DNA of 64,000 nt from a bacterium (GTDB lineage Bacteria; Hydrothermota; Tepidihabitantia; SM23-42; JAOAFX01): positions 438-64,437 of the forward strand of contig DAIRCK010000015.1 of NCBI GenBank assembly GCA_036796695.1, written 5' to 3'. This document shows positions 1,015 through 44,798 of this stretch, in pieces (position 1 is the stretch's first letter; each line of letters starts with the position of its first letter). Made by a program: the position numbers and the translations under genes. The notes beneath the pieces are model-generated. The model made no database searches and was not told the DNA's origin. It saw nothing but the letters and a program-made list of their open reading frames with translations.

Positions 1015-1066
1015 GTAGTTTTTTCTTACTTTCAGTCATCTCATTTTCTCCGTAAGGGCGGGGACT

Positions 1067-3366: not shown

Positions 3367-3540
3367 ATTTAGCCACCATTATATAAAGTTAAGAGTTATC
3401 GTTATTATAAATCTTTTTGTTTTTAAGTCCATAAAAAGCCATCGCCCGTGAAAATAAGAAAAAAATTTTGTTTAACTTTCGTTAGATGAAAGTTGCATAG
3501 CAATTTCATTGTCTCTTTTCCTCCTATGAAGTTAAATGAA

Positions 3541-4164: not shown

Positions 4165-4303
4165 TCTCTCACCTCTGGTAGCATTTCGCCTAACTCGTTC
4201 ATATCCGAACCTGGTTCGGATATCCTTCCAAAATTGGTGGTATAGACGAACTTGGTTCGGATATACCACCCTCTAACTGAACTTTTGTTTGAAATAATGT
4301 TCC

Positions 4304-25955: not shown

Positions 25956-26936
25956 TTATTTTGCTTGTTTTAACTCAAGTATCTTATTCTTCAAAACCGG
26001 CACGACTTTGAACAGATCTTCAACAATTCCGTAATCTGCTTCGTTGAATATTGGTGCATTCGGGTCTTTATTCACAGCAATAATTGTATCAGAATTTTTC
26101 ATTCCCATTATATGTTGAAATGCACCAGAGATTCCAAGTGCGATGTATAACTTCGGTTTCACTGTCTTTCCTGATGAACCGACCTGATGTTCTTTTGGTA
26201 ACCAGCCTGCATCAACTACCGGTCTTGTGCATCCGAGAACACCGCCAATTGCCTTTGCAAAATCTTCTATTACTGGCAGATTAGCTTTATCTTTTATACC
26301 TCTTCCCACAGAGACAATTATGTCTGCCTTAGTAATATCAACTGCACCAACCGCTGCCTCAATGTATTCAATAAATTTCCGATATTCAGGTTGGGAATTC
26401 AGCGGTGTCTCTAATTTAACAACTTCTGCCTCAAGATTTCCAGTTTCTACCGGTATACTGCCGCTACGATAAGTCACAAGATACGATGGATTCTCTTTCA
26501 ATAAAATTCTTGCATTCAACTTTCCATCATACATTGACCTTATGACCCTTAATTTACCATCAAAAACCTGAACATCTATACAATCAGTGGAAAATGGAAT
26601 ATTCAATTGTGTAGCAAGAGATGGTCCTAAATCCATACCCATTGCAGTGTGGCCAATAATTGTGAGAAATGGATTTTCTTTTTTCAATATCTCATTTAAG
26701 GCAATCTGATAACTCTCCGCATTGAAATCCTTAAAAATCGCATTTTCCATCACGATAATCCTGTGGGCACTATTTTTCAACTGCCCGATAAATTTTTCTG
26801 TATTGTCAGAAAGTAAGACTGCACTGCACTGGGTATTTAAAGTTTGAGCAAGTTTTCTTCCCAGAGTTAAAAGTTCAAATGTAATATCCCTTATCACACC
26901 CTGACGGTGTTCAACCAAAGCAAAAATTCCATTCAT
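25956..26936 (-). CDS. etfA: electron transfer flavoprotein alpha subunit
   Basis: Etf alpha FAD-binding domain (VSVGRGI, PKLYIALGISGAFQH). 326 aa. No N-terminal ferredoxin domain. Confidence 0.9.
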   Translation of the reverse strand: MNGIFALVEHRQGVIRDITFELLTLGRKLAQTLNTQCSAVLLSDNTEKFIGQLKNSAHRIIVMENAIFKDFNAESYQIALNEILKKENPFLTIIGHTAMGMDLGPSLATQLNIPFSTDCIDVQVFDGKLRVIRSMYDGKLNARILLKENPSYLVTYRSGSIPVETGNLEAEVVKLETPLNSQPEYRKFIEYIEAAVGAVDITKADIIVSVGRGIKDKANLPVIEDFAKAIGGVLGCTRPVVDAGWLPKEHQVGSSGKTVKPKLYIALGISGAFQHIMGMKNSDTIIAVNKDPNAPIFNEADYGIVEDLFKVVPVLKNKILELKQAK

Positions 26937-26985
26937 AGTGGCTCCTTAGTCAATAATTGTAGTTGTCTGATTCATCAGATATGTT

Positions 26986-27012
26986 TGATAAATCAAACCG
27001 CTACATTGGAAC
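26986..27012. repeat. ATAAAT-loop hairpin motif, copy 4: TTTGATAAATCAAACCGCTACATTGG
   Basis: Lies between etfB and etfA. The arms covary (TTTGAT/ATCAAA). Confidence 0.45.
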
Positions 27013-27159
27013 TACTGAAAAAACTATAAACCATACTATTCGTCATGCTGAACCTTATCCTGGATTTAGTTCAGGATTGTTTAAGCATCCTATTAGACCC
27101 TGAAATAAATTCAGGGTGACAGAATACTTTTTCAGCAATTGCGCATAGATTATTCGGCA

Positions 27160-27930
27160 TTAAAGTAATCCCTTTTCCTTTATTATTCCGGCAAGTTTTG
27201 TTGCAACTTCATCAGCACTGCCTGTGAGTATTTCTGCCCTTTTTCCAACAGGTGGCAAGAAAAGTTCCTCAAGTGTAGTATTTGAAATAACATCTAAACC
27301 AATATCAGATTTCCCTATTGTCTTTATCTCCTTGCTTGCAGCCCTTCTGATTGCAATAAGAGATGCAAAACGCGGAGTGTTTATCCCAGTCTGTATTGTA
27401 ACCAATGCCGGAAGGTTTAGTTCAAGATGTTCAAGTAACCCACCTTCAAGTTCACGATAGACCTGTGCCTTATTGTTTGCAATATCAAATTTTGTAACGA
27501 GTGAGGCGTGTGGGATTCCTAATAACTCTGCCAATGTCTGTCCCACCATTGAATAGGCATCATCGGTTGACATACAACCAGTGAGGATCAAATCATAAGG
27601 TAATCCTTTTATCACCGAGTTTAATATTACTGCAGTCTTATAACCATCTATCTCGCCAAAATCCTCAGCCTTAATTCTTACTGCTGAATCACCACCTTTT
27701 GCCAGTGCAATCCTTAAGGTATCCTCGGTATCTGGATAACCAAGACTCACCACAGTAACAGTTCCACCATATTTCTCCTTTAATAAAATAGCCTCTTCAA
27801 GTGCATAACTATCAGATTCATTCATATCAAAGGCAAGACGGTCTTTTACAATATCCTTGCCCGTTGAATCAATCTTTACATCCGCCTCTGCGGTTTGAGG
27901 CACCCGTTTGATGCAGACGATAATATTCAA
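27160..27930 (-). CDS. etfB: electron transfer flavoprotein beta subunit
   Basis: Etf beta family throughout (MNIIVCIKRVPQT..). TTG start with RBS GGAGG. Confidence 0.9.
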   Translation of the reverse strand: MNIIVCIKRVPQTAEADVKIDSTGKDIVKDRLAFDMNESDSYALEEAILLKEKYGGTVTVVSLGYPDTEDTLRIALAKGGDSAVRIKAEDFGEIDGYKTAVILNSVIKGLPYDLILTGCMSTDDAYSMVGQTLAELLGIPHASLVTKFDIANNKAQVYRELEGGLLEHLELNLPALVTIQTGINTPRFASLIAIRRAASKEIKTIGKSDIGLDVISNTTLEELFLPPVGKRAEILTGSADEVATKLAGIIKEKGLL

Positions 27931-28004
27931 ATTGCCTCCTTATCTATAAAGGAAAAATTGATGCATACAAATTTAAGCAAATTCAGACGGATTAAGTATC
28001 CGTT

Positions 28005-28030
28005 TGCATCCGCAATCATCAGTTTGAATC
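28005..28030. promoter_or_regulatory. acd/etf upstream box, copy a (reverse orientation): TGCATCCGCAATCATCAGTTTGAATC
   Basis: Shares the two-half-site consensus seen at 29194, 29676 and 32421. Confidence 0.4.
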
Positions 28031-29173
28031 TTACTTAAGTAATTCCCTTGCAATCACAATCTTCTGGATCTCGCTTGTTCCTTCATAGAGTTCAAGAATC
28101 TTGGCATCGCGGTAGAATCGTTCAACTGCGTAGTCTTTTGTATAACCATAACCACCAAATATCTGCACAGCCTTACGTGTTACATCAACCGCAATTGTCG
28201 CAGCGTAGTATTTGCACATTGCTGATTCCTTAGAAAATCTTGGCATACCTTTATCTTTACAATAACCAGCATAATATACGAGCAATCTTGCTGCATGGAT
28301 CTGGGTCGCCATCTCTGCGAGCATTGATTGTATCATTTCAAATTCGCATATTGGCTGTCCAAATGCCTTTCGTTCTTTTGAATATTTTACTGCGGCCTCA
28401 AGGGCTGCCTGGGAAATTCCCACAGCCTGGGCACCAATATCCACCCTTGAAACATCGAGTGTATTCATACAGATCTTAAAACCTTCCCCTTCTTTACCAA
28501 GGAGATTTTCTTTTGGAACACGGCAATCCTCAAATATCAACTCACAATTACCACTTGCCCTTATACCCATAAGGTCTTCGTGTTTGCCCAGGGAAAATCC
28601 TGGTGTGCCGCGTTCCACAATAAAAGCACTCATCCCTTTGTGTTTAAGTTCTTTATTGGTATAAGCAAATACTACATAAATTCCGGCCTCTGTTCCATTA
28701 GTGATAAACCTCTTTGTTCCATTTAAAATATAATAATCACCATCAAGTTTTGCGGTCGTTTCCATACCTGCAACATCACTACCTGCATTGGGTTCGGTGA
28801 TACCAATTGCACCGATCTTTTCGCCACTACATAATAACGGCAGATATTTTTGTTTCTGTTCCTCAGTTCCAAAAGTCAAAATAGGGTAGGTACACAATGA
28901 GTTGTTCACAGCAACAACTACGCCCGTAGTTGCACAAACACGGGAAATTTCTTCAATGGCAATTGCCAGAGAAACAAAATCAAGACCTGAACCACCATAT
29001 TTTTCCGGCACAACAATGCCTAACAACCCCTGCTTTGCACATTTTTTTATGTTATTCCAGGGGAATTGTCCTGTTTTATCAATCTCCGGTGCTACAGGCG
29101 CAAGTTCTGCTTCGGCAAATTTGCGCACCTGGTCCTGTAGCATCTTTTGCTCAGATGTCAGATCAAAGTTCAT
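28031..29173 (-). CDS. acyl-CoA dehydrogenase (short/medium-chain, Bcd-like)
   Basis: ACAD N, middle and C domains with the catalytic Glu region (YEGTSEIQ). ATG at 29173 with RBS AAAGGAGG. The track's TTG start at 29200 would read through the upstream motif. Confidence 0.9.
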   Translation of the reverse strand: MNFDLTSEQKMLQDQVRKFAEAELAPVAPEIDKTGQFPWNNIKKCAKQGLLGIVVPEKYGGSGLDFVSLAIAIEEISRVCATTGVVVAVNNSLCTYPILTFGTEEQKQKYLPLLCSGEKIGAIGITEPNAGSDVAGMETTAKLDGDYYILNGTKRFITNGTEAGIYVVFAYTNKELKHKGMSAFIVERGTPGFSLGKHEDLMGIRASGNCELIFEDCRVPKENLLGKEGEGFKICMNTLDVSRVDIGAQAVGISQAALEAAVKYSKERKAFGQPICEFEMIQSMLAEMATQIHAARLLVYYAGYCKDKGMPRFSKESAMCKYYAATIAVDVTRKAVQIFGGYGYTKDYAVERFYRDAKILELYEGTSEIQKIVIARELLK

Positions 29174-29193
29174 ATTACCTCCTTTAACTATTA

Positions 29194-29219
29194 GATTCAA
29201 ACAGATTTATGCGGATTCA
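29194..29219. promoter_or_regulatory. acd/etf upstream box, copy b: GATTCAAACAGATTTATGCGGATTCA
   Basis: Lies 20-45 nt upstream of the acd start at 29173. Confidence 0.45.
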
Positions 29220-29272
29220 CACTGATTATTATTCGTTCACATCCCCAGCTCATCTTTTTGAATTCATATTTT

Positions 29273-29663
29273 TTATACAGACTTACGCCTTACTAAGCGA
29301 ATATACTCTAATTCAGGACTTCCAAAATTCACAAGCAACCCCACTTCGTAAGGCGAAGCCTTTAATTGAGAAATTAACTGTTCACGGAAAACTTTCGGTA
29401 AAAATTCAACCGCTTTCAATTCAAGAATAACTTTACCATCTATCACCAAATCAAGAAGAAATTTCCCAATTATCTTATTGTTATATTTGATATTTATCAC
29501 TTTCTCTTTTTTCGTACGGTATTTTTTGCTCATTTAATTCAATCTCTATCGCTCGCTGGTAAACCTTTTCGGGGAAACCACAACCAAGTGTTTTATGAAC
29601 CTTAAATAATATTCCAATTATTTTATATGTTAAATCTTTATAAAGCAATTTATCTGAATGCAT
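29273..29663 (-). pseudogene. GxxExxY-family protein gene split by a frameshift
   Basis: Two overlapping ORFs (29481-29663 and 29273-29533). Together they cover a GxxExxY protein (GCGFPEKVYQRAIEIEL .. LELKAV .. GLLVNFG). The frame changes in an A/T homopolymer near 29480-29530. Confidence 0.5.
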
Positions 29664-29675
29664 TATTTATCCGTT

Positions 29676-29703
29676 TGAATTCGCTAAAATCTGTTTGAAT
29701 CGG
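29676..29703. promoter_or_regulatory. acd/etf upstream box, copy c: TGAATTCGCTAAAATCTGTTTGAATCGG
   Basis: Lies downstream of acd 29713-30834, in opposite orientation to copies b and d. Confidence 0.4.
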
Positions 29704-29712
29704 TAGTATTTT

Positions 29713-30834
29713 TTATTTTCCCAGCACCTGTCTTGCAATAACAATTTTTTGAATCTCGCTCGTGCCTTCACCAATTTCCATCAGTTTTTCATCGCGCAAA
29801 AATCGTTCTACAGGGTATTCATCTGTTATTCCAAACAATCCATGTATATCAATCGCCAGACTCGTTGCCTTCATCCCGATTGTTGATGCATAATATTTTG
29901 CCATTGCCGATTCTTTAACATAAGGCAAACCAGCATCTTTTAATTGTGCTGCGTTGTAGATCAATAACCTCGCAGCTTCAATCTCAGTTGACATCTCAGC
30001 AATCCTTGATTGTATCGATTGTTCTTTGTGGAGATTATTCTCTTTAACAAACTTTATTGAGGCATCAAGTGCACCCTGGGCAATTCCCAAGGCAAGGGCA
30101 CCTATAGAAATCCTGCCACCATCAAGGGTTTCCATAAATATCTTAAAACCATCACCCTCTTTTCCCAGAAGATTTTCTTTTGGAATTACACAATCCTCAA
30201 ATATTAATTCCGATGTTATTGAACCACGAAGTCCGAGTTTATCCTCTTCCCTGCCTGGTGTAAATCCTGGAGTTCCTTTTTCCACAACGAATGCGGAAAT
30301 TCCTTTGTAACCCAATGATGGATCACTGGTCGCGGTAAAAATAATCACATCGGCAATATGGCCTGAGGTAATAAACCTCTTCGTCCCATTGATGATATAC
30401 TTATCACCGACCAATTTAAATCTTGTCTGGGTTCCAGCTGCGTCACTACCTGCATTAGGTTCGGTCAGACCAAATGAACCAATCTTTTCACCCCTTGCAA
30501 GGGGTATGAGCCACTTTTTTTTCTGTTCTTCAGTCCCGGCATAGTATATCGGAAACACCCCAAGTGAAGAATGGGCAGCAAGAAAAATGCCGGTAGAACC
30601 GCAAACCCTGCCAATCTCTTCTACCGCTATTGCATAAGAAAGAACATCAAGGCCTGCACCGCCATATTCTTCAGGCACATAAAGGGCAAGGAGTTTTAAC
30701 TCTGCCATCCTTTTCACTAAATCCCAGGGGAATTCACCCTTCTTATCTATCTCCTTTGCCCTGGGTGCAACCTCATTATCTGCAAAAGAGCGAACCATAT
30801 CTCTAAATTCTTTGTGTCTTTCACTCAAAATCAT
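29713..30834 (-). CDS. acyl-CoA dehydrogenase
   Basis: ACAD family. Roughly 50 percent identical to 28031-29173 by eye (LTEPNAGSD, GEGTSEIQ). Confidence 0.9.
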   Translation of the reverse strand: MILSERHKEFRDMVRSFADNEVAPRAKEIDKKGEFPWDLVKRMAELKLLALYVPEEYGGAGLDVLSYAIAVEEIGRVCGSTGIFLAAHSSLGVFPIYYAGTEEQKKKWLIPLARGEKIGSFGLTEPNAGSDAAGTQTRFKLVGDKYIINGTKRFITSGHIADVIIFTATSDPSLGYKGISAFVVEKGTPGFTPGREEDKLGLRGSITSELIFEDCVIPKENLLGKEGDGFKIFMETLDGGRISIGALALGIAQGALDASIKFVKENNLHKEQSIQSRIAEMSTEIEAARLLIYNAAQLKDAGLPYVKESAMAKYYASTIGMKATSLAIDIHGLFGITDEYPVERFLRDEKLMEIGEGTSEIQKIVIARQVLGK

Positions 30835-30939
30835 GATTCACCGCCTTTTTATCTTTTAAAAATCTCCCTCTTTAATTTCAAGGTGTGCCTCCTGTTAGGT
30901 AAAACCTCTTGGTAAGATAATCCTCTTTTGAAAAGAGAT

Positions 30940-31176
30940 TTAGAATCGTTTTCTGCTCTGTACTAAGAATTTTCTCTTCCTGGGCCATAACAAAAATTCC
31001 AAAAATCTTTTTGTCTCGGGGTCCATAAAAAGTTTCTTCCAGTATTTTCTGACTAATCTCTCGCTCAGTTTTTCACCACCCAATCCATAGTTAATCATCT
31101 GCTGGATCTTCCAGATTTTATACCCTTCCGGGTCTTCTTTTTTGAATTTCTTTTCATCAACAGACCAGTTATACAT
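30940..31176 (-). CDS. hypothetical small protein (78 aa)
   Basis: ORF only. Confidence 0.3.
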   Translation of the reverse strand: MYNWSVDEKKFKKEDPEGYKIWKIQQMINYGLGGEKLSERLVRKYWKKLFMDPETKRFLEFLLWPRKRKFLVQSRKRF

Positions 31177-31298
31177 AATTTCTCAATAGTGATTATTAAT
31201 GTAATGGTTTACACTGCATTTCGTTCCAGTTAAAGATACTCATTACCTTTAAATTTTATATATATTTGCCGAAAAAAATATTCAATTTTAAAATGATA

Positions 31299-32387
31299 TT
31301 AACCGAGTAATTCTCTTGCGATTTTCTCTTTCAAGACAAAGTTAGGTAGTCCCAAGACCTGGATTGTCTTTGCATCCCGCAGATAACGTTCCACTGGGTA
31401 ATCCTTTGTATAACCATAACCACCAAAAATCTGAACTCCCTTAATCCCGCAATAGAATGCGGCCTCGGTGTTTGAAACAAAAGCAAGTTTAACTGCCATT
31501 TTGTAGTCTTCTTTTGAATCATACCTATTTGCTGCATCATATAAAAGATTCCTTGATGATTCAATCTTTATCTTCATCTCTGCAAGCATCTCTTGAACCA
31601 TTGGAAATTCACAGATTGGTCTATTAAACTGCCGACGCTCTTTTGCATATTTTGTTGAAGCATCTAATGATGCCTGGGCAATGCCAAGACCTACTGCGGA
31701 AAGGCAGAGATTAAAATAATCTCTTATCTCCTTTGTAGCAGTATCATATTCCGGATTATCAAGTAAACAAAAACCATCAGGAATTTCGAAATTTTCAAAC
31801 GAGATATCAGCAACCCCTGAAGACCTCATCCCCAGTAGATAAGGATTTGTAACTCTGAATTTGTCAGAAGATTCAATGAGATATAGACTCCGGCCATTTT
31901 CAGTTTTTATATCTAATAACAAAAATTTTGCAAATGCACCATTTAAGACAAAACGGCTTCTACAATCTATCTTCAAAGGATTGTGGGAGATAATCTGAAG
32001 ATTCTTATCAAAGTCAATATCAATTCCACCCAGTTCACCATTACCAAGGCGTTTAAGATAAGTTTTTGATTTTTCATTTTGGGATTTCATCAAAGAATAG
32101 GCAACGAGACCATTATTTACCGCAATAACCAGTCCGACTGAAGCACAGACCTTTGACAACTCCTCAATTATTATGCATAAACTTGTGGTGTCAAATCCTG
32201 CTCCACCAAATTCTTGAGGAATTATTGGCGATAATATGCCGAGTTCATTTAGTTTCCTAAAAATCACTTCAGGGATACTTGCATTTTTTTCTATTTCCTG
32301 AACAATCGGCTCTATCTCCTGAAGGGTAAATTTCTTCACTTCATTCTGAATCATCTTCTGCTCATTGTTAAGATTGATTAAACCCAT
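31299..32387 (-). CDS. divergent acyl-CoA dehydrogenase-like protein (362 aa)
   Basis: Has the ACAD fold signature (GGYGYTKDYPVERYLRDAK) but a divergent N-terminus and middle domain. ATG with RBS AGGAG. Confidence 0.75.
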   Translation of the reverse strand: MGLINLNNEQKMIQNEVKKFTLQEIEPIVQEIEKNASIPEVIFRKLNELGILSPIIPQEFGGAGFDTTSLCIIIEELSKVCASVGLVIAVNNGLVAYSLMKSQNEKSKTYLKRLGNGELGGIDIDFDKNLQIISHNPLKIDCRSRFVLNGAFAKFLLLDIKTENGRSLYLIESSDKFRVTNPYLLGMRSSGVADISFENFEIPDGFCLLDNPEYDTATKEIRDYFNLCLSAVGLGIAQASLDASTKYAKERRQFNRPICEFPMVQEMLAEMKIKIESSRNLLYDAANRYDSKEDYKMAVKLAFVSNTEAAFYCGIKGVQIFGGYGYTKDYPVERYLRDAKTIQVLGLPNFVLKEKIARELLG

Positions 32388-32621: not shown

Positions 32622-32650
32622 TATTGACAGGGGCTTAAAAATCCCTATAA
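32622..32650 (+). promoter_or_regulatory. sigma70-like promoter (TTGACA-16-TATAAT) abutting the kinase start
   Basis: ttgacaggggcttaaaaatccctataat. The -10 ends 7 nt before the first ATG, which implies a leaderless or very short-leader transcript. Confidence 0.45.
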
Positions 32651-34630
32651 TTGGTAGTAATGAAACGCCGCTTTTTCCCCTTACAAACAAAGTTGATTTT
32701 AAGTTTCTCCACAGTTATAATTATCGGGATATTCTTATCGACCTTTACCGGCATACAGATAATTGGGAATACAATAGTGGCACAGGGACAGGAAAAGGTT
32801 AAACTTGATTTAAATACTGCAAGAGAAGTTCTTGAAGAGGAAAAAAGGACGATAAAAAACATACTCAGATTGACCGCGAGCCGTTATTTTGTAAAGGATG
32901 CCCTTATTAAAAGAGATCGCATTTTTTTATTAAAAGAATTGAGAACGGTTAAAACTGATGAAAACCTGGATATATTAAATATCACAGACAATCTCGGCCG
33001 TATAATACTACGCGTGGAAAATCCAGAATATTGTAATGATTTTCCGGAAAATGAAATTTTAAAAAAAGTCTTAAAACAAAAAGAAAGCATATATGGAGTT
33101 CTAATAATATCCGAAGAAGAACTTAAAAAAGAAAGCGAGAAACTTGCTGAACGAGCAAAAATTAAAATACTACCCACACCCAAGGCAAAACCCCGTAATG
33201 ATACATTAGAAACATCCGGGTTGATTATTATTGCCGGGGCACCGATCTTTGATGATAATGGTAATCTCATCGGTGTTGTCTATGGTGGTAGATTATTAAA
33301 CAGGAATTTTGACATTGTAGATAAAATAAAGGATATTGTTTATAAAGAAGAAAAATTTAGAAAAAAAGAGATTGGCACAGCAACGATCTTCCTCAAGGAC
33401 CTTCGAATAACAACAAATGTTCGTGATATCACCGGACAAAGGGCTATCGGCACAAGGGTATCAGAAGAAGTATACAACCAGGTTTTAGTAAATGGCAGAC
33501 CCTGGGTCGGCAGGGCGTTTGTGGTAAATGACTGGTTTATTACGGCATACGAACCGATCCGGGATATAAATAATCAGATCGTTGGTATCCTGTATGTTGG
33601 AATGCTTGAGGCACCTTATGTATATCTAAAGAACCGTGTTATCTCAATATTCATTCTTATTGCAGTTCTAAGCATTATTGCGCTTGCAATAATTTCGTTC
33701 GTTACAGTAAAACGTATCACCAGACCGATAAATGAATTATATCAACTTACTGAAAGGGTTTCAAAGGGTGACCTCTCAGCACGAGCGAAGATTAGTTCAG
33801 ATGATGAAATTGGAGAATTGATAAAATCATTTAATCAAATGATTGATTCCCTTCAAAATGTTACCGAAGGCTACGTCAATCTTACCAAAACCCTTGAACA
33901 GAAGGTTCAGGAAAAGACAAACGAACTGGAAAAGGCAATGGAACAGTTAATCCAGAATGAAAAATTATCCGCCCTTGGCAGGCTTGCTGCAGGTATTGCC
34001 CACGAAATCAATAATCCGCTGACCGCAATCCTAATCAATGGCCATCTGATAAAAGAAAAGGTAAAAGGAGATACCAAACTATCAGAAAAACTTGATATGA
34101 TTATTGATGAGACACAACGGTGTGCAAAGATTGTAAGCGGACTTTTGGAATTTTCACGCCAGACACCACCTGAAATGAAACTTATCTCTATAAATGAAGT
34201 TATTAATAAAACACTCATCCTCTTTGAAAGCGTTTTTCTTGCCAATAATGTGAAAGTTGAAATCTCCCTTGATAAAAATCTATCTCAAATTATGGCGGAT
34301 GAGAGTAAAATAAAACAAGTATTGACGAATATTCTACTAAATGCACTTGACGCAATGCCCAACGGCGGGATTCTAAAAATTTATTCTCAACTTTCTTTAG
34401 ACAATAAATTTGTAGAAATAGAAATCGAAGACTCGGGTATAGGCATACCAGAGGAAAATCTGGATCGCATATTTGACCCTTTCTTTACAACAAAAAAATC
34501 AAAAGGAACAGGACTTGGGTTATCAATAAGTTATGGTATTATCCAGCAACATAATGGAAGTATTGAAGTAAATAGTGAAGTCAATAAAGGAACAAAAGTT
34601 AAAATAAAATTGCCTATATTAGAAAATTGA
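32651..34630 (+). CDS. sensor histidine kinase with a periplasmic Cache-like domain, HAMP, HisKA and HATPase (659 aa)
   Basis: Two TM helices flank a periplasmic region of about 290 aa. H-box AHEINNPL. The N box and G1/G2 boxes are present in the C-terminal ATPase (DSGIGIP, GTGLGLS). Confidence 0.85.
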   Translation: MVVMKRRFFPLQTKLILSFSTVIIIGIFLSTFTGIQIIGNTIVAQGQEKVKLDLNTAREVLEEEKRTIKNILRLTASRYFVKDALIKRDRIFLLKELRTVKTDENLDILNITDNLGRIILRVENPEYCNDFPENEILKKVLKQKESIYGVLIISEEELKKESEKLAERAKIKILPTPKAKPRNDTLETSGLIIIAGAPIFDDNGNLIGVVYGGRLLNRNFDIVDKIKDIVYKEEKFRKKEIGTATIFLKDLRITTNVRDITGQRAIGTRVSEEVYNQVLVNGRPWVGRAFVVNDWFITAYEPIRDINNQIVGILYVGMLEAPYVYLKNRVISIFILIAVLSIIALAIISFVTVKRITRPINELYQLTERVSKGDLSARAKISSDDEIGELIKSFNQMIDSLQNVTEGYVNLTKTLEQKVQEKTNELEKAMEQLIQNEKLSALGRLAAGIAHEINNPLTAILINGHLIKEKVKGDTKLSEKLDMIIDETQRCAKIVSGLLEFSRQTPPEMKLISINEVINKTLILFESVFLANNVKVEISLDKNLSQIMADESKIKQVLTNILLNALDAMPNGGILKIYSQLSLDNKFVEIEIEDSGIGIPEENLDRIFDPFFTTKKSKGTGLGLSISYGIIQQHNGSIEVNSEVNKGTKVKIKLPILEN

Positions 34631-34673
34631 TTTTAAAATCTATTTCTGTGATAAAATAAAAAAGGGGGTATAA

Positions 34674-35429
34674 ATGGATCAAAAGAAATTTAAAATTTTG
34701 GTTGTTGATGATGAGATAACTGTATGTAAAAGTATTACAAGTGCCCTTGAAGATTTTGACTATGTAGTCGATATGGCACTGAGTGGTGAAGAAGCAACTT
34801 TTAAACATAATAAAAACCATTATGATTTGGTCATTGCAGATTTAATGATGCCGGATATAACAGGCATTGAATTGCTGAAAAGAATAAAAGCAACAACTCC
34901 TGAGGTTCAGTTTATTCTCATAACCGGTTATCCATCAATAAAAACTGCTGTTGAGGCTATAAAATTCGGGGCATTTGATTATATACCAAAACCATTCACG
35001 CCTGATGAATTAAGAAGTATAATAAATCGCGCCCTTGATTATTATAAAAAGGAAAAAATTGAACTAATGCCCGTGCCTGCAGACTATTACTGCATAACAG
35101 ATAATTCCTGGGCAGAAATTGAAAAAGATGGCAATGTCAGAATTGGTGCCCATGAAAGACTGGTTAAAGGAATTAAAGAAATCTCAATGTTAGAATTTCC
35201 ATCCATTGGTGAAATGCGATATCAGGGTGAAGCCTGCGCAAGGATAAATACGGGTGCTAATCAAATATACAGGGTATGGACTCCAGTTTCCGGAAAAATA
35301 ATTAAAATAAATCAAGACCTTAATAAGAACTACAGTAAATTAATTACTGACCCCTATAATGAAGGCTGGTTGTTGATAATACAACCAACAAACTTAGAAT
35401 CGGATTTAAAAAATCTGACCAGATGCTAA
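34674..35429 (+). CDS. response regulator: REC domain fused to a glycine-cleavage-H-protein-like domain (251 aa)
   Basis: REC has VVDDE and the phospho-acceptor Asp in VIADLMMP. The C-terminal region of about 120 aa (VRIGAHERLVKG..GEACARINTGANQIY..DPYNEGWLLI) aligns with GcvH/lipoyl-fold proteins. The lipoyl-lysine position is not Lys. No HTH. Confidence 0.8.
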   Translation: MDQKKFKILVVDDEITVCKSITSALEDFDYVVDMALSGEEATFKHNKNHYDLVIADLMMPDITGIELLKRIKATTPEVQFILITGYPSIKTAVEAIKFGAFDYIPKPFTPDELRSIINRALDYYKKEKIELMPVPADYYCITDNSWAEIEKDGNVRIGAHERLVKGIKEISMLEFPSIGEMRYQGEACARINTGANQIYRVWTPVSGKIIKINQDLNKNYSKLITDPYNEGWLLIIQPTNLESDLKNLTRC

Positions 35430-35430
35430 A

Positions 35431-38400
35431 TTGAATTCATTCGATATTGAAAAATTATTTAAAAAAATTCAGCTCTTACTTAAAAATTATGATTGCTATG
35501 ATGTTTATTTCTTAGATAACAAAGGCAAATGGAATAAAAACCCAGAGACCCTTAAAGACATAATCTCAAGTGAAGTCTGGTTCCGTATATGGGCATCATC
35601 TCGTTGTTCTAATAATGAAGAAACCCTTGATCTTTTTAAGCCCATCTTAAATAATGCCTATTTTCAAGACTTAATGAGTAAATTCACAAATATTGCAGAT
35701 GGAATGGAAATTGATATAACCGACACGCTAATTACCTTTGAAATCTTATACGTCCTAATTGAATACCAGATATACATATTGAATACTGAAAAATATATTC
35801 CGGATTGGAATTATCAAGAAAAGAAAATACAGAATGAATATCTTATAAGATTGGATAATTTTAAGAAAAATCTAAAAAATATTTTGAGTGATCCGATATT
35901 GTTTGATAGTTTTTTTCACATTCATAAAGAATTAACAAAGAACAACCTCTTCAATTCCATTTCAGTAACAATCAATGAAGAAATCAAATTTTATGAACAA
36001 CAGATTTTACATAAAGCAAAACTTGAAGAACCAAGAAAAATCACTCAAATTTATAATTTTTTGAGTAATAAAATAGATTTTGATATCGCTTCTGCTGTAA
36101 CCAAGAAACAGGCTCTTATCAGACCATTTTTAAGAGCACTAAATGATGCTACAAATCTTGTTCCAGTTGGTTTACAATTTGAAATTGTCTCAATCCTTGG
36201 TGCGTTAAAAGATCCGAGGTGTGCAAGAACCCTGTTCAACCTTTTGAAAAATACGAGTCTTGAATATATAAATCTCATATCAAATATTATATACACATTA
36301 GGAAATCTCCAGTTTAACGAGATGTCTGAATATTTAAAAATGATTCTCCAGTTACCTGATTACATTGATCTTTCTTCAGGATACAAACAGCCTATTTACG
36401 ATATAAAATCCGAAACGATTTGGTCTACCGGCAAACTTGGCATCTCAGGAATAAATCTCATCAATGAAATGGTAAAATACATATCTCACAAGGATAATAT
36501 AATAAAAATCGCGCTTGCCTGGGCAATGGCAATGATTGGTATAAAAGAGAAGAAAGAAGAAGGTGTCGTTGATCTTGAAATTCTCACAACTTTATTAGGA
36601 CTCCTGAAAGATAAAGATAAAAAGGTATTTGAAGAATCTATCTATGGTTTAAAAGTCTTAGGATTTTATGAACTCATTGATAATCTGAATCTAAACAATA
36701 TTCCAGCAACACCCATACTCGCTCTCAAGCCAAGCAGTATTGGTCTTTATGAACTCTCTGAAACTATTTATCATCTTGTTAATCTGAAAAAACCTGTTGT
36801 TATAGCAGTCACTGGAGATTCGGGCACAGGAAAGACTTATTTTTGTGAATCAATCAGATATGGTTTTGGTGACATTTCAAAAGATGATATACTTTATCTA
36901 ATGAGGGATAATCCTGCTCACCGAACAATATTCAGCAGGATGATTGATAAAAAATTCACAAAAGATTTTCTCGATCCACAATATTATACCATTGAAACAA
37001 TGGATGAAAGAAATCTTGAACCGTTTCAGGGTTTTTTTGACTTCATAAGACAAAATAGCCACAAGAAATTAATTATCCTTGATGGCTGGCTTGATGAGAT
37101 ATATTTTTATCAGGTTCTTAAGACTTTTTACATATATAGCTATCTTGATTGTATAATAAACTTCAGGGCAACATATTCAACAAGGAGAATCAATCTGGAG
37201 GAAAGAGAAGGAATCCTGGAACGGGTCAGAGATTGTTTAAGGTTTGTTGAGAATCCACCTATCGAAGAAACTGAATTTTATCGCAATGGTGATGTCTTTG
37301 TTTATAATCTTGATAACTCTATTGGTTCACGCCTCAGTGCTGATGAAATCAAAGAAGTCTTCAGTAGAAAAAAGGTCAGATTATGGGCCGAGCATATCCG
37401 AATTGGAAATTTTGAAAAGGAACTGAGAGAATTAAAAATCACAGAAGAAACTTTGAACAGACGGACCGAAGATTTTGTAATACAAAATGACGGTAAAATA
37501 GAAAGCGAAGAAGAAGCAATAGAAATATATAACGAACATTTTTTTAGAATAATTAATAGTGATATAGTTGAAAAGCCGATCCTGCTTCAGAAAATAAGAT
37601 TAAAAAAATCCATTCCAGAAAAAATATCGCGTTATGCACCAGGTGTAATTGCCTACCATAATACTAATGGCATTGTCGGTATATTAACTGGAATTAATGA
37701 CCAGAATTATTTTACGCAGATTAAAGAAAATAAAATCTATGATCACTGCATTTATAATGATTTGTTCTTTGCAATTGGAGAGGAAAGTAAAATCTATGCG
37801 TTTGATTTTAGTAAAAATCTTTTGAGAACCTTAAAAATATCAGCCTCTCCCCTATCTGCAATTGCTACCGACCGGAATAATATCATTGCCACCGGACATC
37901 AGGATGGAACAATAAGATTATGGGATATTAACTCAGAGATGACGTACCTGCTCAAAGGACATAAGAATTCAATAATCAGTATCGTGATTGATAAGAAAGG
38001 TATAATTGTATCAAATAGTAGTGATGGCGAATTGAGATTATGGAATTTACATAAAAATTCAATAAAAATATACAATAATATGAATTTTAACACCAACCTG
38101 ATAGGTCTGGAACGACCCTCAGGTAACATAATTTTTGTTAAAAGAAATAATGTTGTAAGATTAGACCCAGAAAATGAAACAGTAAAAATAATTTCTTTAC
38201 CGAATTACATTGAACCAATTGCATTCTGTCCCTATTATGACGGCAGAATATTCGCAGGTTATAGAAAAGAAGATAGAACATATTTTATCGTTATTGAATT
38301 TAAAAAAGACAAAGGATTTTACAATACCATCAGGATTGATATAAATAAAATTAATGGTATAACGGCAATGGGACCCAGGATTATCATATCTGGTATGGAC

Positions 38401-38520
38401 AACGATGGAGCAATCATAGAGATTCTGGGTAGTGAAGACTATGTCCGGGGCGAGATTGAAAAACTAAAGATTCTCAAGAATTCAAAACGTCGTTTTCAAT
38501 ACCATAGTATGATATTCTGA
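35431..38520 (+). CDS. large multidomain protein: HEAT-like repeats, PRK/uridine-kinase-like P-loop domain and a WD40 beta-propeller (1029 aa)
   Basis: HEAT/PBS-lyase-like repeats (ALAWAMAMIGIKEK..LLGLLKDKDKK). Walker A VIAVTGDSGTGKTYF matches the PRK/UK family; hhhhDG at KLIILDGWLD. WD repeats (GHQDGTIRLWDINS, SDGELRLWNLH). TTG start 2 nt after the regulator stop. Confidence 0.7.
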   Translation: MNSFDIEKLFKKIQLLLKNYDCYDVYFLDNKGKWNKNPETLKDIISSEVWFRIWASSRCSNNEETLDLFKPILNNAYFQDLMSKFTNIADGMEIDITDTLITFEILYVLIEYQIYILNTEKYIPDWNYQEKKIQNEYLIRLDNFKKNLKNILSDPILFDSFFHIHKELTKNNLFNSISVTINEEIKFYEQQILHKAKLEEPRKITQIYNFLSNKIDFDIASAVTKKQALIRPFLRALNDATNLVPVGLQFEIVSILGALKDPRCARTLFNLLKNTSLEYINLISNIIYTLGNLQFNEMSEYLKMILQLPDYIDLSSGYKQPIYDIKSETIWSTGKLGISGINLINEMVKYISHKDNIIKIALAWAMAMIGIKEKKEEGVVDLEILTTLLGLLKDKDKKVFEESIYGLKVLGFYELIDNLNLNNIPATPILALKPSSIGLYELSETIYHLVNLKKPVVIAVTGDSGTGKTYFCESIRYGFGDISKDDILYLMRDNPAHRTIFSRMIDKKFTKDFLDPQYYTIETMDERNLEPFQGFFDFIRQNSHKKLIILDGWLDEIYFYQVLKTFYIYSYLDCIINFRATYSTRRINLEEREGILERVRDCLRFVENPPIEETEFYRNGDVFVYNLDNSIGSRLSADEIKEVFSRKKVRLWAEHIRIGNFEKELRELKITEETLNRRTEDFVIQNDGKIESEEEAIEIYNEHFFRIINSDIVEKPILLQKIRLKKSIPEKISRYAPGVIAYHNTNGIVGILTGINDQNYFTQIKENKIYDHCIYNDLFFAIGEESKIYAFDFSKNLLRTLKISASPLSAIATDRNNIIATGHQDGTIRLWDINSEMTYLLKGHKNSIISIVIDKKGIIVSNSSDGELRLWNLHKNSIKIYNNMNFNTNLIGLERPSGNIIFVKRNNVVRLDPENETVKIISLPNYIEPIAFCPYYDGRIFAGYRKEDRTYFIVIEFKKDKGFYNTIRIDINKINGITAMGPRIIISGMDNDGAIIEILGSEDYVRGEIEKLKILKNSKRRFQYHSMIF

Positions 38521-40139: not shown

Positions 40140-40511
40140 ATGAATCTTTCTAATATTAAAGAAATCCTTAATGCAAAAATTCTTACCAATTATGTTTCGC
40201 TGGAGATTGATGTTAAAAATGTAATTGCATCAGACCTGATGAGCGATGTCTTAAATAGTAAGAATCCTGCGGATTTACTCTTAACCGGATTGATTAATAC
40301 CCAGGCTATAAGGACCTGTGAGATTGCAGGGATAAAGGCAATTCTGTTTGTTAAAGGTAAAACCCCAGATGAAGAGACGATAAAACTTGCTGAATCCTGT
40401 AATATTCCATTGCTTTCCTGTTCTCTCTCTATGTTTGAAGCCTGCGGGATATTATATTCATATGGTCTCATCTACCCTGATTCAAAGAATGGAAACAGAA
40501 ATAATCCTTAA
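40140..40511 (+). CDS. DRTGG-domain protein (123 aa)
   Basis: Similar to the 42193-42543 protein and to DRTGG domains (LLLTGL..AIRTCE..AILFVKG). Confidence 0.6.
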   Translation: MNLSNIKEILNAKILTNYVSLEIDVKNVIASDLMSDVLNSKNPADLLLTGLINTQAIRTCEIAGIKAILFVKGKTPDEETIKLAESCNIPLLSCSLSMFEACGILYSYGLIYPDSKNGNRNNP

Positions 40512-40932
40512 TGAGGAGTTTGAAATTACCGGTGGTGATTTCATAAATGGTGGAGCTGCCTCCTGCAGGGTTAAGAATATTCTTAAAGAGATCGGACTTG
40601 CACCAGAAATCATCCGCAGGGTTGCAATCGCATCTTATGAAGCAGAAATGAATGTTGTAATGTATGCAAAAAAAGGAATAATGAAACTTATTCTGACATC
40701 TGATAAAATAATCATAAAGGTTGATGATGAAGGACCAGGGATACCCGATATAGAGTTAGCAATGCAACCCGGGTATTCAACTGCGACGCCAGAAATAAGA
40801 GAGATGGGCTTTGGTGCAGGAATGGGTTTACCAAATATAAAGAAGAACGCTGATATTTTTAATATAAATTCTACGGTTGATAAAGGAACAAACCTTGAAA
40901 TAATTATAAACCTGAATACCAAAAATGACTGA
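40489..40932 (+). CDS. small histidine-kinase-like ATPase (anti-sigma-factor/Ser-protein-kinase type)
   Basis: HATPase_c-like (DDEGPGIP, GFGAGMGL). The internal ATG at 40489 is the preferred start; the track begins at 40387. Confidence 0.6.
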   Translation: METEIILNEEFEITGGDFINGGAASCRVKNILKEIGLAPEIIRRVAIASYEAEMNVVMYAKKGIMKLILTSDKIIIKVDDEGPGIPDIELAMQPGYSTATPEIREMGFGAGMGLPNIKKNADIFNINSTVDKGTNLEIIINLNTKND

Positions 40933-42196
40933 ACCAATATACCATTCAATTAAAATAAACGAAACAAAATGCATTGGCTGTGTCGTATGTATGAAAGCCT
41001 GCCCGACCAAGGCAATTAGAATCAAACAGAGGAAGGCACGGGTTATTGCTGAACGTTGCATTGATTGTGGTGAATGTCTCAGGGTCTGTCCATATAATGC
41101 AATAACCCCTTTAACCACCCAGTCTTCAGATATCAATCGTTTTAAAATGAAGATTGCCCTACCCAGTCCGGTAATCTATTCACAATTTGGTTCTGAGGTT
41201 ATGCCCTATCAAATTCTCAATGCATTAAAAGAGCTGGGTTTTGACTATGCCTTTGACGAAGCACTTGCCTGTGAGATGGTATCTATCGCTATACAGGAGT
41301 ATCTTGTAAGAAATCCCCTGCCAAGACCAATAATTTCATCAACCTGCCCGGTCGTGGTCCGACTTATACAGAGATTATTCCCGGGTCTCGTATCATTGAT
41401 AATCAAAATGGAACCACCAAGGGAGATTGCAGCCAAAAATTTAAGAAAAGAATTATCCAGGGAATATAAAATTCCTGAGTCTGATCTCGGTATATTCCAT
41501 ATTACACCCTGTCCTGCAAAGATGGTTTCTATAAACAGGCCTGAAACTATGGAAAAATCATATCTTGATGGTGCAATTTCAATAAAAGAAATTTATAACC
41601 AGGTGATGGCACGTTTAAAAAAGAAAGAAAAAAAATTTTTGTTGCATACACAGAGCCAGGTTAGCGGTATTGGTATTGGTTGGGCAATCTCAGGTGGTGA
41701 GATAAGGGGTATAAAGGGTGATTCTGTGGTTTCAGTTTCTGGTGTCTATGATACAATAAAAATTCTGAGTGATGTAGAAAGTGGAAAGATAAAGAATATT
41801 GATTACCTTGAATGCCTCATCTGTCCTGACGGTTGTATTGGTGGACCTTTAACAGTAGAAAATAGATTCCTGGCAAAAAGCACCATTCTCAGCCTGATTA
41901 GACAGTTTGGCGGAAAAAACCGGATTGATACCAATTATGTCCGACAACTATACGAGAAAAATTTCTTTTCGTTTGAAAGGGATATAAAACCAAAACCATT
42001 CCCGCCCCTTGACCCAAATAAAAATGAAGCGATAAAAAAACTGAAAAAGAAAGAAAAAATACTAAAAAACCTGCCCGGCATCAACTGTGGGGTCTGTGGT
42101 TCACCAGATTGTGAATCATTTGCCGAAGACCTTGTCCGCAATGAACAGGGACTTACAGTTGGTAGGTGTGTATTCTTAGGAGAATCAAATCTATGA
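40925..42196 (+). CDS. [FeFe]-hydrogenase-like protein (putative sensory, HfsB/HydS type) with an N-terminal 2x[4Fe-4S] ferredoxin and a C-terminal extra Cys cluster
   Basis: Ferredoxin motifs CIGCVVCMKACP and CIDCGECLRVCP. H-domain motifs L1 ISSTCP (canonical TSCCP), L2 ITPCPAKM (MPCxxK) and L3 ECLICPDGCIGGP (ExMACxGGCxxGGGQP). C-terminal CGVCGSPDC..C. Confidence 0.75.
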   Translation: MTEPIYHSIKINETKCIGCVVCMKACPTKAIRIKQRKARVIAERCIDCGECLRVCPYNAITPLTTQSSDINRFKMKIALPSPVIYSQFGSEVMPYQILNALKELGFDYAFDEALACEMVSIAIQEYLVRNPLPRPIISSTCPVVVRLIQRLFPGLVSLIIKMEPPREIAAKNLRKELSREYKIPESDLGIFHITPCPAKMVSINRPETMEKSYLDGAISIKEIYNQVMARLKKKEKKFLLHTQSQVSGIGIGWAISGGEIRGIKGDSVVSVSGVYDTIKILSDVESGKIKNIDYLECLICPDGCIGGPLTVENRFLAKSTILSLIRQFGGKNRIDTNYVRQLYEKNFFSFERDIKPKPFPPLDPNKNEAIKKLKKKEKILKNLPGINCGVCGSPDCESFAEDLVRNEQGLTVGRCVFLGESNL

Positions 42197-42543
42197 AGAT
42201 ATTAAAACTTGCCGAAATAATAAAAAATTTAAACCTGAAGATAGAATATGGTGAAAAATATAAAGACCGCGATGTTAGCGGTGGATATGTGAGCGACCTC
42301 TTGAGTGATGTAATGGCAAATGCGAAAAAGGGTGATATATGGATTACTTTGCAGACACATCCTAATATCGTAGCAGTTGCAGTTTTAAAAGAAATATCTG
42401 GGATCATTATTGTTGGCAATCGCAAACCTGAACCTGAAACTTTAAAAAAAGCAGAACAGGAAAAAATCCCGATAATGACGACCGAATTATCCGGCTTTGA
42501 GATTGTAGGAAGATTGTATGAGATGGGCATAGGTGCGACCTGA
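42193..42543 (+). CDS. DRTGG-domain protein (about 116 aa)
   Basis: Has a DRDVSGGYVSDLLSDVM motif. Its ATG overlaps the stop of the hydrogenase-like gene (ATGA). Confidence 0.6.
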   Translation: MKILKLAEIIKNLNLKIEYGEKYKDRDVSGGYVSDLLSDVMANAKKGDIWITLQTHPNIVAVAVLKEISGIIIVGNRKPEPETLKKAEQEKIPIMTTELSGFEIVGRLYEMGIGAT

Positions 42544-42557
42544 TAACCATTAGCAAT

Positions 42558-43403
42558 ATGCTAAAATGTTACCGTGCCGACCTCCATATCCATACCTGCC
42601 TCTCACCCTGTGCAGATTTGACGATGTCACCGAAAAGATTGGTAGAAAGGGCAAAGGTTAAGATGCTGGATATCATTGGGATATGTGATCATAACTCGGC
42701 TGAGAATATCCAATATGCTATAAATGCTGTAAGAACGCCTCACCTTAATCCTTTTCCTGTTAAAACGGGGAGAGAGAAGGATGGGGGGATGGACTGCAGG
42801 CACAGTCAGCCATTTCGTATGGCGGATTTTCCCTGTCCGTCTTTAACAGTGCTTCCTGGTATGGAAATCTGCACAAAAGAAGAGGTTCATATTCTCGGGA
42901 TCTTTGATGAACTAAGTGCAGTGTTGAAATTGCAGGAACTCGTTTATCAGTCATTACCAGAAGAAAAAAATAATCCTGAATTATTTGGCGAACAGATTAT
43001 TGCCAACGAGTTTGACGAGGTTGAAGGTTATAATGAAAGGTTGCTTATAGGTGCATCCAGTTTATCCATAAAAGAGGTTGTTGATGAAATACATAGACTC
43101 AGAGGTATAGCAATCGCCTCACATATTGACCGTGAGAGTTTTAGTGTTATCAGTCAACTGGGATTTATTTCTGAGGAATTAAATTTTGATGCCTTAGAAA
43201 TCTCCCCAAATATTACAATAGAAGAAGCAAATAGAAAATTTCCTGAAATCAAAAAATTTCCCATAATACAAAATTCTGATGCCCATTTCCTTGAAGATAT
43301 TGGAAAGGCGAACACTGATTTTTATATTCAAGAGCCAACAATAGAAGAAATAAGAATGGCATTACTCAATGAAAAAGGCAGGAGGATAAGTTACCAATGC
43401 TAA
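42558..43403 (+). CDS. PHP-domain phosphoesterase (281 aa)
   Basis: N-terminal ADLHIHTCLSPCAD and GICDHNS form the PHP His-rich metal site. Confidence 0.8.
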   Translation: MLKCYRADLHIHTCLSPCADLTMSPKRLVERAKVKMLDIIGICDHNSAENIQYAINAVRTPHLNPFPVKTGREKDGGMDCRHSQPFRMADFPCPSLTVLPGMEICTKEEVHILGIFDELSAVLKLQELVYQSLPEEKNNPELFGEQIIANEFDEVEGYNERLLIGASSLSIKEVVDEIHRLRGIAIASHIDRESFSVISQLGFISEELNFDALEISPNITIEEANRKFPEIKKFPIIQNSDAHFLEDIGKANTDFYIQEPTIEEIRMALLNEKGRRISYQC

Positions 43404-43605
43404 ATTCTAAATCCCAAATTCTAATCCACCGAACTGTGTGGTGGACTAAACAAATTCCAATTATCAAACTTTACAATTTCCCAAACATTTTTAAATATTG
43501 GAATTTAGGATTTAAATATTGTTTAGAAATTGGTGCTTGGTCCGCCACTCTTCCGCCAATCAGTGTGGTGAATGGTGGTTTGGAATTTAAATTTTTGGGT
43601 GTCTG

Positions 43606-44157
43606 ATGCAGGACTTATCTCTCCATATCTTAGATATTGTGGAAAATTCCATAGATGCAGGAGCAACGAAGATTGAAATTATGATTGATGAAGATATTGA
43701 ACATAATCAATTGAAAATCAAAATAAAGGACAATGGCAAGGGAATGGATAAAGAAACATTGAAAAAGGTTCTCGACCCATTTTACACGACAAAGACCGTA
43801 CGTCGGGTAGGAATGGGGTTATCACTATTTGCCCAAACAATCCAGGAGGCAGAAGGTAAGATTGTAATAAAATCTAAACTTAAAAAAGGAACATCGGTCA
43901 GTGCCACATTAAAGTATAACCATATAGACCGGAAACCAATGGGCAATATGATAGAAACAATAATGGCACTATTAGCAACAAAGGCACACGACATAGACTT
44001 TATATATGTTCACAGAAAAAATAAAGAGGAGTTTATATTGAATACAAAAGAGATAAAGAAAGAACTGGATGGTGTTATGATAAATGAACCTGAGGTTCTA
44101 AAATTTTTAAGAACCCAAATTAAAAAGGGTTTGAAGGAAATAGGTGTGGCGGTATGA
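43606..44157 (+). CDS. stand-alone histidine-kinase-like ATPase (183 aa)
   Basis: N box HILDIVENSIDAGA, G1 DNGKGMD, G2 GMGLSL. Confidence 0.7.
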   Translation: MQDLSLHILDIVENSIDAGATKIEIMIDEDIEHNQLKIKIKDNGKGMDKETLKKVLDPFYTTKTVRRVGMGLSLFAQTIQEAEGKIVIKSKLKKGTSVSATLKYNHIDRKPMGNMIETIMALLATKAHDIDFIYVHRKNKEEFILNTKEIKKELDGVMINEPEVLKFLRTQIKKGLKEIGVAV

Positions 44158-44798
44158 ATAAGGCGCTGGAAAACAGAATTAGCGGACAACCACAAGGGTT
44201 GTCCCTACATAATAAAATCCCCAATGTAGGGACAGGGTTTATCCCTGTCCGAATTAAAAAAAGCAATGTAGGGACAGGGCTTGTCCCTGTCCGAAAAAAC
44301 GGACAGCCACAAGGGCTGCCCCTACATAATAATATTTATCCAAAACGAAAAAACCCACGACTAAAAGGCTTTGACTATGCCTTACCTTATGCATATTTTA
44401 TTACAATTTGTGCCTTTAATAAAAATAATTACTTTGTTAAAAAAAACTTAAATACAAAAATAGTAGATTGCCTTGTCTATGAAAAAAACAGAAGGAATTT
44501 TATTATCTTTGCCTATTGTCTAATGCCTAATCATCTACATTTGCTTGTTTCACCTGGAAATTCAAAAATTAGCGTATCAAAATTCATTGGGGGATTTAAA
44601 AGCAAAACAACACGTATCGCCTGGGATAATGGCATTAAAAAATTATGGCAAGACAGGTTTTATGACCATATTTTACGGAAAAACGAGGATTTAAGGGAAA
44701 TTGCCTATTACATTTTGAACAATCCTGTGAGAAAGAGACTGGTTAAATCTTTCGAAGAATATGAGTTTTGCGGAGTGATAGATGAGATACCGATATAA
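44154..44798 (+). CDS. REP-associated tyrosine transposase (RAYT, IS200/IS605-like Y1 HUH family)
   Basis: HUH motif CLMPNHLHLLV. C-terminal REIAYYILNNPVRKRLV is the Tyr-helix of RAYTs. The N-terminal 57 codons of the track ORF read through the REP array. The functional start is probably near 44334, possibly non-ATG. Confidence 0.7.
   Translation: MNKALENRISGQPQGLSLHNKIPNVGTGFIPVRIKKSNVGTGLVPVRKNGQPQGLPLHNNIYPKRKNPRLKGFDYALPYAYFITICAFNKNNYFVKKNLNTKIVDCLVYEKNRRNFIIFAYCLMPNHLHLLVSPGNSKISVSKFIGGFKSKTTRIAWDNGIKKLWQDRFYDHILRKNEDLREIAYYILNNPVRKRLVKSFEEYEFCGVIDEIPI
44183..44325. repeat. REP (repetitive extragenic palindrome) cluster, 5' side of the RAYT gene
   Basis: Four palindromes, each bounded by GTAG: CGGACAACCACAAGGGTTGTCCCTAC; GTAGGGACAGGGTTTATCCCTGTCCGAA; GTAGGGACAGGGCTTGTCCCTGTCCGAA; CGGACAGCCACAAGGGCTGCCCCTAC. 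Confidence 0.7.

Follow-up and report, generated by a model that had tools for sequence, protein, structure and literature searches.

In a stretch of 64,000 nucleotides (nt) from contig DAIRCK010000015.1 of a bacterium of the Hydrothermota (hereafter the window), three co-directional open reading frames (ORFs) spanning 32651-38520 of the forward strand encode a sensor histidine kinase of 659 amino acids (aa), a response regulator of 251 aa and a protein of 1029 aa, which is referred to here as the giant. Together they constitute a real and apparently undescribed two-component system, whose output module does not work through transcription and contains an orphan family of P-loop domains. We hold, with a little more belief than doubt, that this is a non-transcriptional pathway in which the phosphorylated regulator gates the kinase-like domain of the giant. 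The kinase would sense a small extracytoplasmic ligand through its Cache domain and would phosphorylate Asp56 of the regulator, which in turn would act by protein contact on the giant, the product of the next and translationally coupled gene. The giant would be a rigid platform in which an ATP-binding P-loop kinase-like domain is flanked by a HEAT/ARM solenoid on one side and a WD40 propeller on the other. Once bound, the phosphorylated regulator would act as the switch for phosphate transfer from ATP, by this domain, to a substrate that the HEAT and WD40 repeats hold in place.

The first gene encodes a two-component kinase in which Pfam finds both the HisKA dimerisation/phospho-acceptor domain and HATPase_c, together with sCache_3_3 and HAMP domains (Table 1). 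Since the Cache region is bracketed by two hydrophobic segments, as read from the sequence, it is extracytoplasmic. The regulator matches Response_reg (E 6e-30, residues 8-117) and GCV_H (E 5e-14, residues 141-248), and its REC domain looks fully competent for phosphorylation because residues D12, D13, D56, T84 and K106 are invariant across 43 homologues. An earlier note on this DNA, made without database searches, had described the regulator as devoid of a DNA-binding output and as carrying instead an H-protein fold that has lost its lipoyl lysine. Both proposals are borne out: the Pfam scan of the regulator found no DNA-binding domain, the GCV_H match reaches 52.6 bits against a cut-off of 22.2, solved H proteins are matched by the C-terminal domain (PDB 3tzu, E 6e-13), and the lipoyl lysine of Escherichia coli GcvH, K65, aligns with Asn196.

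This domain is homologous in fold to the glycine cleavage H protein (PF01597) and to the lipoyl/biotinyl 'hybrid motif' domains, with which it shares conserved PVSG and PY-GW motifs. Unlike the H protein, it has neither the lipoyl lysine nor the ESVK hairpin, the motif flanking that lysine being absent from the alignments, and it displays a signature of its own, conserved in 119 homologues, that consists of an upstream RYQGE and of the strand [HY][RK]xW[ST]P beside the former lipoyl hairpin. The lipoyl-lysine column is highly variable in the same homologues (G in 33, K in 21, N in 20, R in 9, Q in 7, D in 7, and others). From this variability and from the conserved family-specific motifs, the C-terminal domain is concluded to be an H fold whose carrier function has been lost as a family trait; moreover, being fused to REC, it cannot serve as a swinging-arm carrier. 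It is very improbable that the domain is a working lipoyl carrier in an operon for glycine cleavage or lipoate-linked redox metabolism. Such a role would agree with the GCV_H score and with the lysine found in 21 of the 119 homologues, but it is opposed by the asparagine of the window regulator, by the variability of the column, by the lack of ESVK and by the neighbouring genes, among which neither genes for the P, T or L proteins of glycine cleavage nor a gene for lipoate ligase recur.

The regulator and the giant are also closely joined at the DNA level. The regulator stop codon TAA (35427-35429) and the TTG start of the giant (35431) are separated by the single base 35430, in agreement with the near contiguity already noted for these genes. 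A Shine-Dalgarno sequence, GGGGG, precedes the regulator gene, and inspection of the sequence upstream of the giant TTG found none. Because the TTG lies 1 nt past the stop and has no Shine-Dalgarno sequence, translational coupling of the two genes is likely; in homologues (for example in loci L001 and L016 in the numbering used below) the stop and start frequently overlap. No terminator-like site was found on the plus strand within the operon.

The AlphaFold2 model of the full giant, built with 49 homologues, has a mean predicted local distance difference test score (pLDDT) of 86 and a predicted template modelling score of 0.79, which points to a fixed inter-domain arrangement of four parts. 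The combination of HEAT repeats, P-loop and WD40 that had been proposed for this protein is confirmed by profiles and by this model. No Pfam family is matched in the N-terminal 230 residues, where the model places a helical domain; a phosphorelay through this domain acting as an HPt-like module was ruled out, no conserved His being present there. The solenoid that follows is confirmed at profile level: HEAT_2 on the isolated segment scores 26.5 bits, slightly below its cut-off of 27.7, designed armadillo proteins are found with the family profile (5mfd_A, E 7e-26), and homologues of the giant carry PF13646 and PF03130. At the other end WD40 (PF00400) reaches 32.2 bits against a cut-off of 27, with many other propeller families matched over residues ~746-906. 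The model shows the propeller fold, which begins about 20 residues beyond the final helix of the P-loop domain.

Conservation in the giant is highest in the P-loop domain, where most of the invariant columns of the protein are found. The Walker A stretch, VIAVTGDSGTGKTYF, lies at residues 457-471, and the core GDSGTGKT (36814-36837) is invariant in the family. In the model strand 1 leads through the P-loop into a helix, strand 2 is followed by an insert of four helices and 55 residues, strand 3 by a helix, and strand 4 by an Arg-rich helix that precedes strand 5. The motif LYLMRD, with invariant R492 and D493, follows strand 2; LIILDGW, with invariant D551 and G552, lies on strand 3; the Arg-rich helix STRRINLEEREG past strand 4 contains invariant S583, R586, N588, E590 and R592; and N629 and S630 are invariant past strand 5. 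P-loop kinases share such a layout, their Asp past strand 2 working on the acceptor and the arginines of their lid stabilising the transition state. Walker A, the Asp past strand 2, the hhhhDG strand 3, the Arg-rich lid-like helix past strand 4 and the five-strand beta/alpha order of secondary structure are features in common with AAA_18-type kinases, uridine kinase/PRK, APS kinase and Clp1/Grc3, and kinases also give the best fold matches.

AAA_18 matches 16 of 16 tested family members across most of the profile, with a best E of 5e-6 that is below its cut-off, and a Foldseek search of the PDB returned among its top 50 nearly only P-loop small-molecule and polynucleotide kinases (best E 5e-4, template modelling score ~0.3-0.4). 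The first match was the putative kinase 2rhm (E 5e-4), followed by APS kinase, gluconokinase, UMP/CMP kinase, dephospho-CoA kinase and PSTK, with UCK2 at rank 30. The low scores are explained by the query, a domain-only AlphaFold2 model with a pLDDT of 66. The earlier note had been more specific and had assigned the domain to the phosphoribulokinase/uridine kinase type. What stands of that assignment is a weak fold resemblance to P-loop kinases in general; the sequence similarity to Udk and PRK is confined to Walker A. PF00485 gives 14.8 bits, against a cut-off of 22, and covers profile positions 1-28 instead of the whole domain; the NCBIfam PRK match (E 0.01) is limited to residues 451-480; and hhalign aligns 26 columns with E. 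coli Udk (probability 41%) and 31 with a mini-profile of three Udk/UCK2 sequences (78%), versus a probability of 4% for the adenylate kinase control.

Unlike known P-loop kinases, the domain has no family-level sequence membership and is embedded between HEAT and WD40 repeats. When HMMER was used to search 1.84 billion representative proteins for the P-loop-domain profile, only 69 cluster representatives were recovered, all of them giants of ~1000-1070 aa or fragments of giants, so the domain has no detectable relatives outside the HEAT/P-loop/WD40 architecture. It is possible, though doubtful, that the giant is the first member of a new family of regulator-gated P-loop kinases, in which phosphorylated REC, in most lineages aided by the H domain, activates phosphorylation of a protein or metabolite on the HEAT/WD40 platform. 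A bolder variant of the same idea would place the phospho-acceptor on the H domain itself, in the conserved His/Tyr strand that adjoins the former lipoyl hairpin.

We regard as rather unlikely that the giant works, by a STAND- or AAA-like logic, as a nucleotide-dependent switch or scaffold for assembly and not as a phosphotransferase. Regulator-gated ATP binding or hydrolysis would then alter its conformation or oligomeric state and so recruit proteins through the HEAT/WD40 surfaces. Repeat domains flank the nucleotide-binding module as they do in STAND proteins, and weak, sub-threshold Pfam matches running from Walker A to Walker B point in this direction (NACHT in 15 of 16 members, best E 0.003; AAA_16; nSTAND3). 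However, the propeller directly follows the P-loop domain, where a STAND protein would have helical and winged-helix ARC-type domains, no helical lid is present, and Walker B reads hhhhDG without the catalytic Glu; moreover the four-helix insert and the Arg-rich helix are both P-loop-kinase-like and the Foldseek matches are overwhelmingly kinases. An AAA+ or STAND assignment of the domain was set aside for its lack of lid, winged-helix domain and catalytic Glu, and a KaiC/RecA-like one on topology, there being no lid domain or catalytic Glu and a helical insert lying between strands 2 and 3. PADLOC assigned no defence system and gave only a match to LmuB restricted to the Walker A region (residues 435-495) and matches at the level of REC.

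The gating of the giant by the regulator, which we prefer, draws further support from the distribution of the three genes. The P-loop-domain profile was searched against one genome per species and was found in 101 of 185,579 species, all represented by metagenome-assembled genomes and labelled WOR-3, Stahlbacteria, Zixibacteria, Gemmatimonadota (an uncertain label), Eisenbacteria, Edwardsbacteria and Aminicenantes/Acidobacteriota; the closest named relatives of the window giant belong to candidate division WOR-3. Two loci (L017 and L019; DXJL01000014.1 and DXJL01000041.1), binned as 'Candidatus Heimdallarchaeota MAG_8', hold a bacterial triad with a P-loop domain 63-64% identical to that of the window, and their label is probably a binning error. 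The description of the module as eukaryote-like is not supported, as the family is confined to bacteria, in which HEAT and WD40 repeats are widespread.

Loci are numbered here with the prefix L. Synteny was counted in 80 species-representative loci, with denominators limited to the loci that had enough sequence. Of 67 such loci, 65 have a REC-GcvH gene no more than 400 bp upstream of the giant, and the Cache kinase precedes the giant in 42 of 43, so that the co-location on which the first description depended does occur in other genomes. Distant homologues of the giant (29-35% identity), among them those of KSB1 (L004), Aminicenantes and Eisenbacteria, are preceded by the kinase and REC-GcvH genes in the same order and on the same strand. 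When neighbouring ORFs were clustered, only the three families of the triad recurred (90, 80 and 74 loci); the fourth commonest family, present in 18 loci, reflects synteny inside one lineage. As a consequence the three-gene module appears, from its gene neighbourhoods, to be self-contained. Mere adjacency of three functionally unlinked genes is scarcely credible, given that order and strand are kept in several phyla at such a divergence of the giant and that the reading frames overlap or abut.

Several observations weigh against the proposed gating of a kinase-like domain by the regulator. A profile search of PDB sequences with the P-loop domain found no significant match to a solved kinase beyond Walker A, the best matches being RAD51D, CbbX and KaiC at E ~0.01. 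In Stahlbacteria locus L016 (JAUWGT010000046.1, 8322-8687) the regulator directly before the giant is a REC-only protein of 121 aa from the same subfamily, with 58% identity to the REC of the window protein; its stop overlaps the giant start, and the H domain is absent throughout the locus. In addition, the complete WOR-3 genome CP070705.1 (L011, 7132-8777) has a truncated kinase and a REC-GcvH regulator with no giant after them; this kinase is 291 aa long, has no Cache domain and adjoins phage-like genes, and the locus may represent a module that has decayed.

The REC-only regulator of L016, directly before the giant, suggests that the H domain is not universally needed for the link to the giant and that REC itself may make the contact. 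Other loci vary in their own ways: L024 has an additional REC-only gene (3621-4001) between REC-GcvH and the giant, Zixibacteria loci L020 (6981-8703) and L021 (3636-5373) have two tandem REC-GcvH genes before the giant, and the kinase is absent from L036. In seven loci (L009, L010, L022, L026, L029, L031, L032) a gene for an acetyl-CoA hydrolase/transferase (PF02550/PF13336) stands between kinase and regulator; its products are 75-82% identical among loci, which form one clade labelled Eisenbacteria or 'Gemmatimonadota'. Judged from these gene orders, the adjacency of REC and giant is the most constant feature, and such variants (L016, L024 and others) call for caution towards the proposal of the earlier note that it is the H domain which docks onto the giant.

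It is decidedly unlikely that the giant is only an accessory regulator, whether as connector, phosphatase scaffold or feedback element on the kinase or regulator, and that the output is the H domain acting on another target, which could be an enzyme that normally binds H or lipoyl domains or a hydrogenase or amino-acid fermentation enzyme whose gene lies in the vicinity. The link to the giant in L016 does without the H domain, which might have another partner; redox and fermentation genes recur near the triad, since among 34 long species loci the large subunit of a NiFe hydrogenase is found within 10 kb in 7 and glutamate dehydrogenase in 5; and one clade carries the acetyl-CoA hydrolase/transferase gene inside the operon. 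Against this, the neighbourhoods hold no second conserved partner, and the most conserved residues of the giant are catalytic-type P-loop residues, which would be unusual for a pure adaptor.

Regulation of the giant by the phosphorylated regulator would have parallels in known systems. The PhyR/NepR partner switch, the RssB adaptor and CheY-FliM are response regulators with protein-binding outputs, and the pathway proposed here would likewise use a phosphorylatable REC to control a protein-protein interaction and not DNA binding, with an output independent of transcription. Unlike PhyR, RssB and CheY, the regulator has an output domain of H-protein fold and its presumed partner is an enzyme-like platform of 1029 residues instead of a sigma factor, a protease or a motor component. 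The giant also differs from PkwA, which joins a Ser/Thr kinase to WD40 repeats, and from the STAND NTPases with WD40 or TPR arrays, because its nucleotide module belongs neither to the Hanks kinases nor to the STAND NTPases and because it is genetically tied to a two-component pair. In agreement with the initial impression that this combination had not been described as a two-component output, no description of the REC-GcvH regulator, the giant or the triad was found in the searchable literature, two reviews of response-regulator output domains being outside its scope.

Most response regulators act on DNA or through a few well-known enzymatic outputs, and the module would add an output class that pairs an H-protein fold turned to a new use with a P-loop kinase-like enzyme of an orphan family, a case of a cofactor-carrier fold recruited for signalling. 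It occurs in some 100 species from candidate phyla in which nothing has been cultured and hardly any signalling has been characterised, and, consisting of three defined proteins open to reconstitution in vitro, it is experimentally tractable. The hydrogenase, glutamate dehydrogenase and acyl-CoA genes found nearby hint at post-translational control of fermentation. If the giant is indeed a regulator-gated kinase, uncultured fermenters of the FCB group and Aminicenantes would link an extracellular ligand sensed by Cache directly to central redox and fermentation metabolism, without transcription.

Table 1. Coordinates of the triad, its domains and the associated promoter-like sites in the window (res, residues; E, Pfam E-value).
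Feature	Position	Strand	Details
Promoter-like site, divergent, perfect sigma-70 consensus	32611-32584	-	12/12 consensus matches only
Promoter-like site, perfect sigma-70 consensus TTGACA-16-TATAAT	32624-32651	+	12/12 consensus matches only
Sensor histidine kinase	32651-34630	+	659 aa as called; ORF list and Pfam domains
sCache_3_3 core of the sensor domain	33296-33619	+	res 216-323; E 4e-33
HAMP domain	33704-33856	+	res 352-402; E 5e-17
HisKA and HATPase_c transmitter	33974-34618	+	HisKA res 442-505, E 6e-15; HATPase_c res 550-656, E 3e-27
Response regulator, REC and GcvH-like	34674-35429	+	251 aa; ORF list and Pfam domains
REC domain	34695-35024	+	res 8-117; Pfam
GcvH-like barrel-sandwich domain	35094-35417	+	res 141-248; lipoyl-Lys position Asn196, codon 35259-35261
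Giant protein	35431-38520	+	1029 aa; TTG start
N-terminal helical domain of the giant	35431-36030	+	res 1-200; model
HEAT/ARM-like solenoid of the giant	36106-36681	+	res ~226-417; paired helices in the model
P-loop kinase-like alpha/beta domain of the giant	36733-37365	+	res ~435-645; ~210 residues
WD40 beta-propeller of the giant	37426-38427	+	res ~666-999

The two promoter-like sites stand back to back in the gap between an acyl-CoA dehydrogenase gene and the kinase gene, with adjacent -35 boxes. The -10 box of the plus-strand site terminates at the called TTG of the kinase (32651), and because a perfect sigma-70 consensus site ends there the true start of the kinase is probably the ATG at 32660; kinase homologues align only from residue 4-11 onward. 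Such a start would imply that the leader of the transcript is very short or absent.

Upstream of the triad, on the opposite strand (25956-32387), are the genes for ETF alpha and beta and three acyl-CoA dehydrogenase paralogues. The paralogue nearest to the triad (31299-32387) gave no match to the middle domain Acyl-CoA_dh_M, and an ORF of 86 aa (29273-29533) lies between two of the paralogues. Downstream, the first gene after the giant is that of glutamate dehydrogenase, at 38754, with its own promoter-like site. Beyond it a plus-strand cluster (40140-44157) encodes DRTGG, HATPase_c_2, a Fe-only-hydrogenase-like protein with Fer4/FeS domains (40925-42196), DRTGG, PHP_C and HATPase_c, and looks like a hydrogenase-type sensory or regulatory unit. 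The same DRTGG/HATPase/Fe-only-hydrogenase-like cluster also adjoins the triad in WOR-3 loci L012 and L015.

In other genomes an operon for a NiFe hydrogenase, comprising Fer4_22, a NAD-binding subunit, the small and large subunits and HycI, stands immediately before the triad in KSB1 locus L004 and in L006, L007 and L008 (about 700-5200), and it lies directly upstream or within 10 kb also in L036, L040, L047, L064, L077, L078, L083 and L089. The association of the triad with fermentative and redox metabolism is thus recurrent and not universal, and is to be taken as a lead rather than as functional evidence. A Rex-like repressor is encoded alongside the NiFe hydrogenase operon of L036. In the window, an ORF for an IS200-like Y1 transposase (44154-44798, plus strand) overlaps by 4 nt the end of the preceding HATPase_c ORF.

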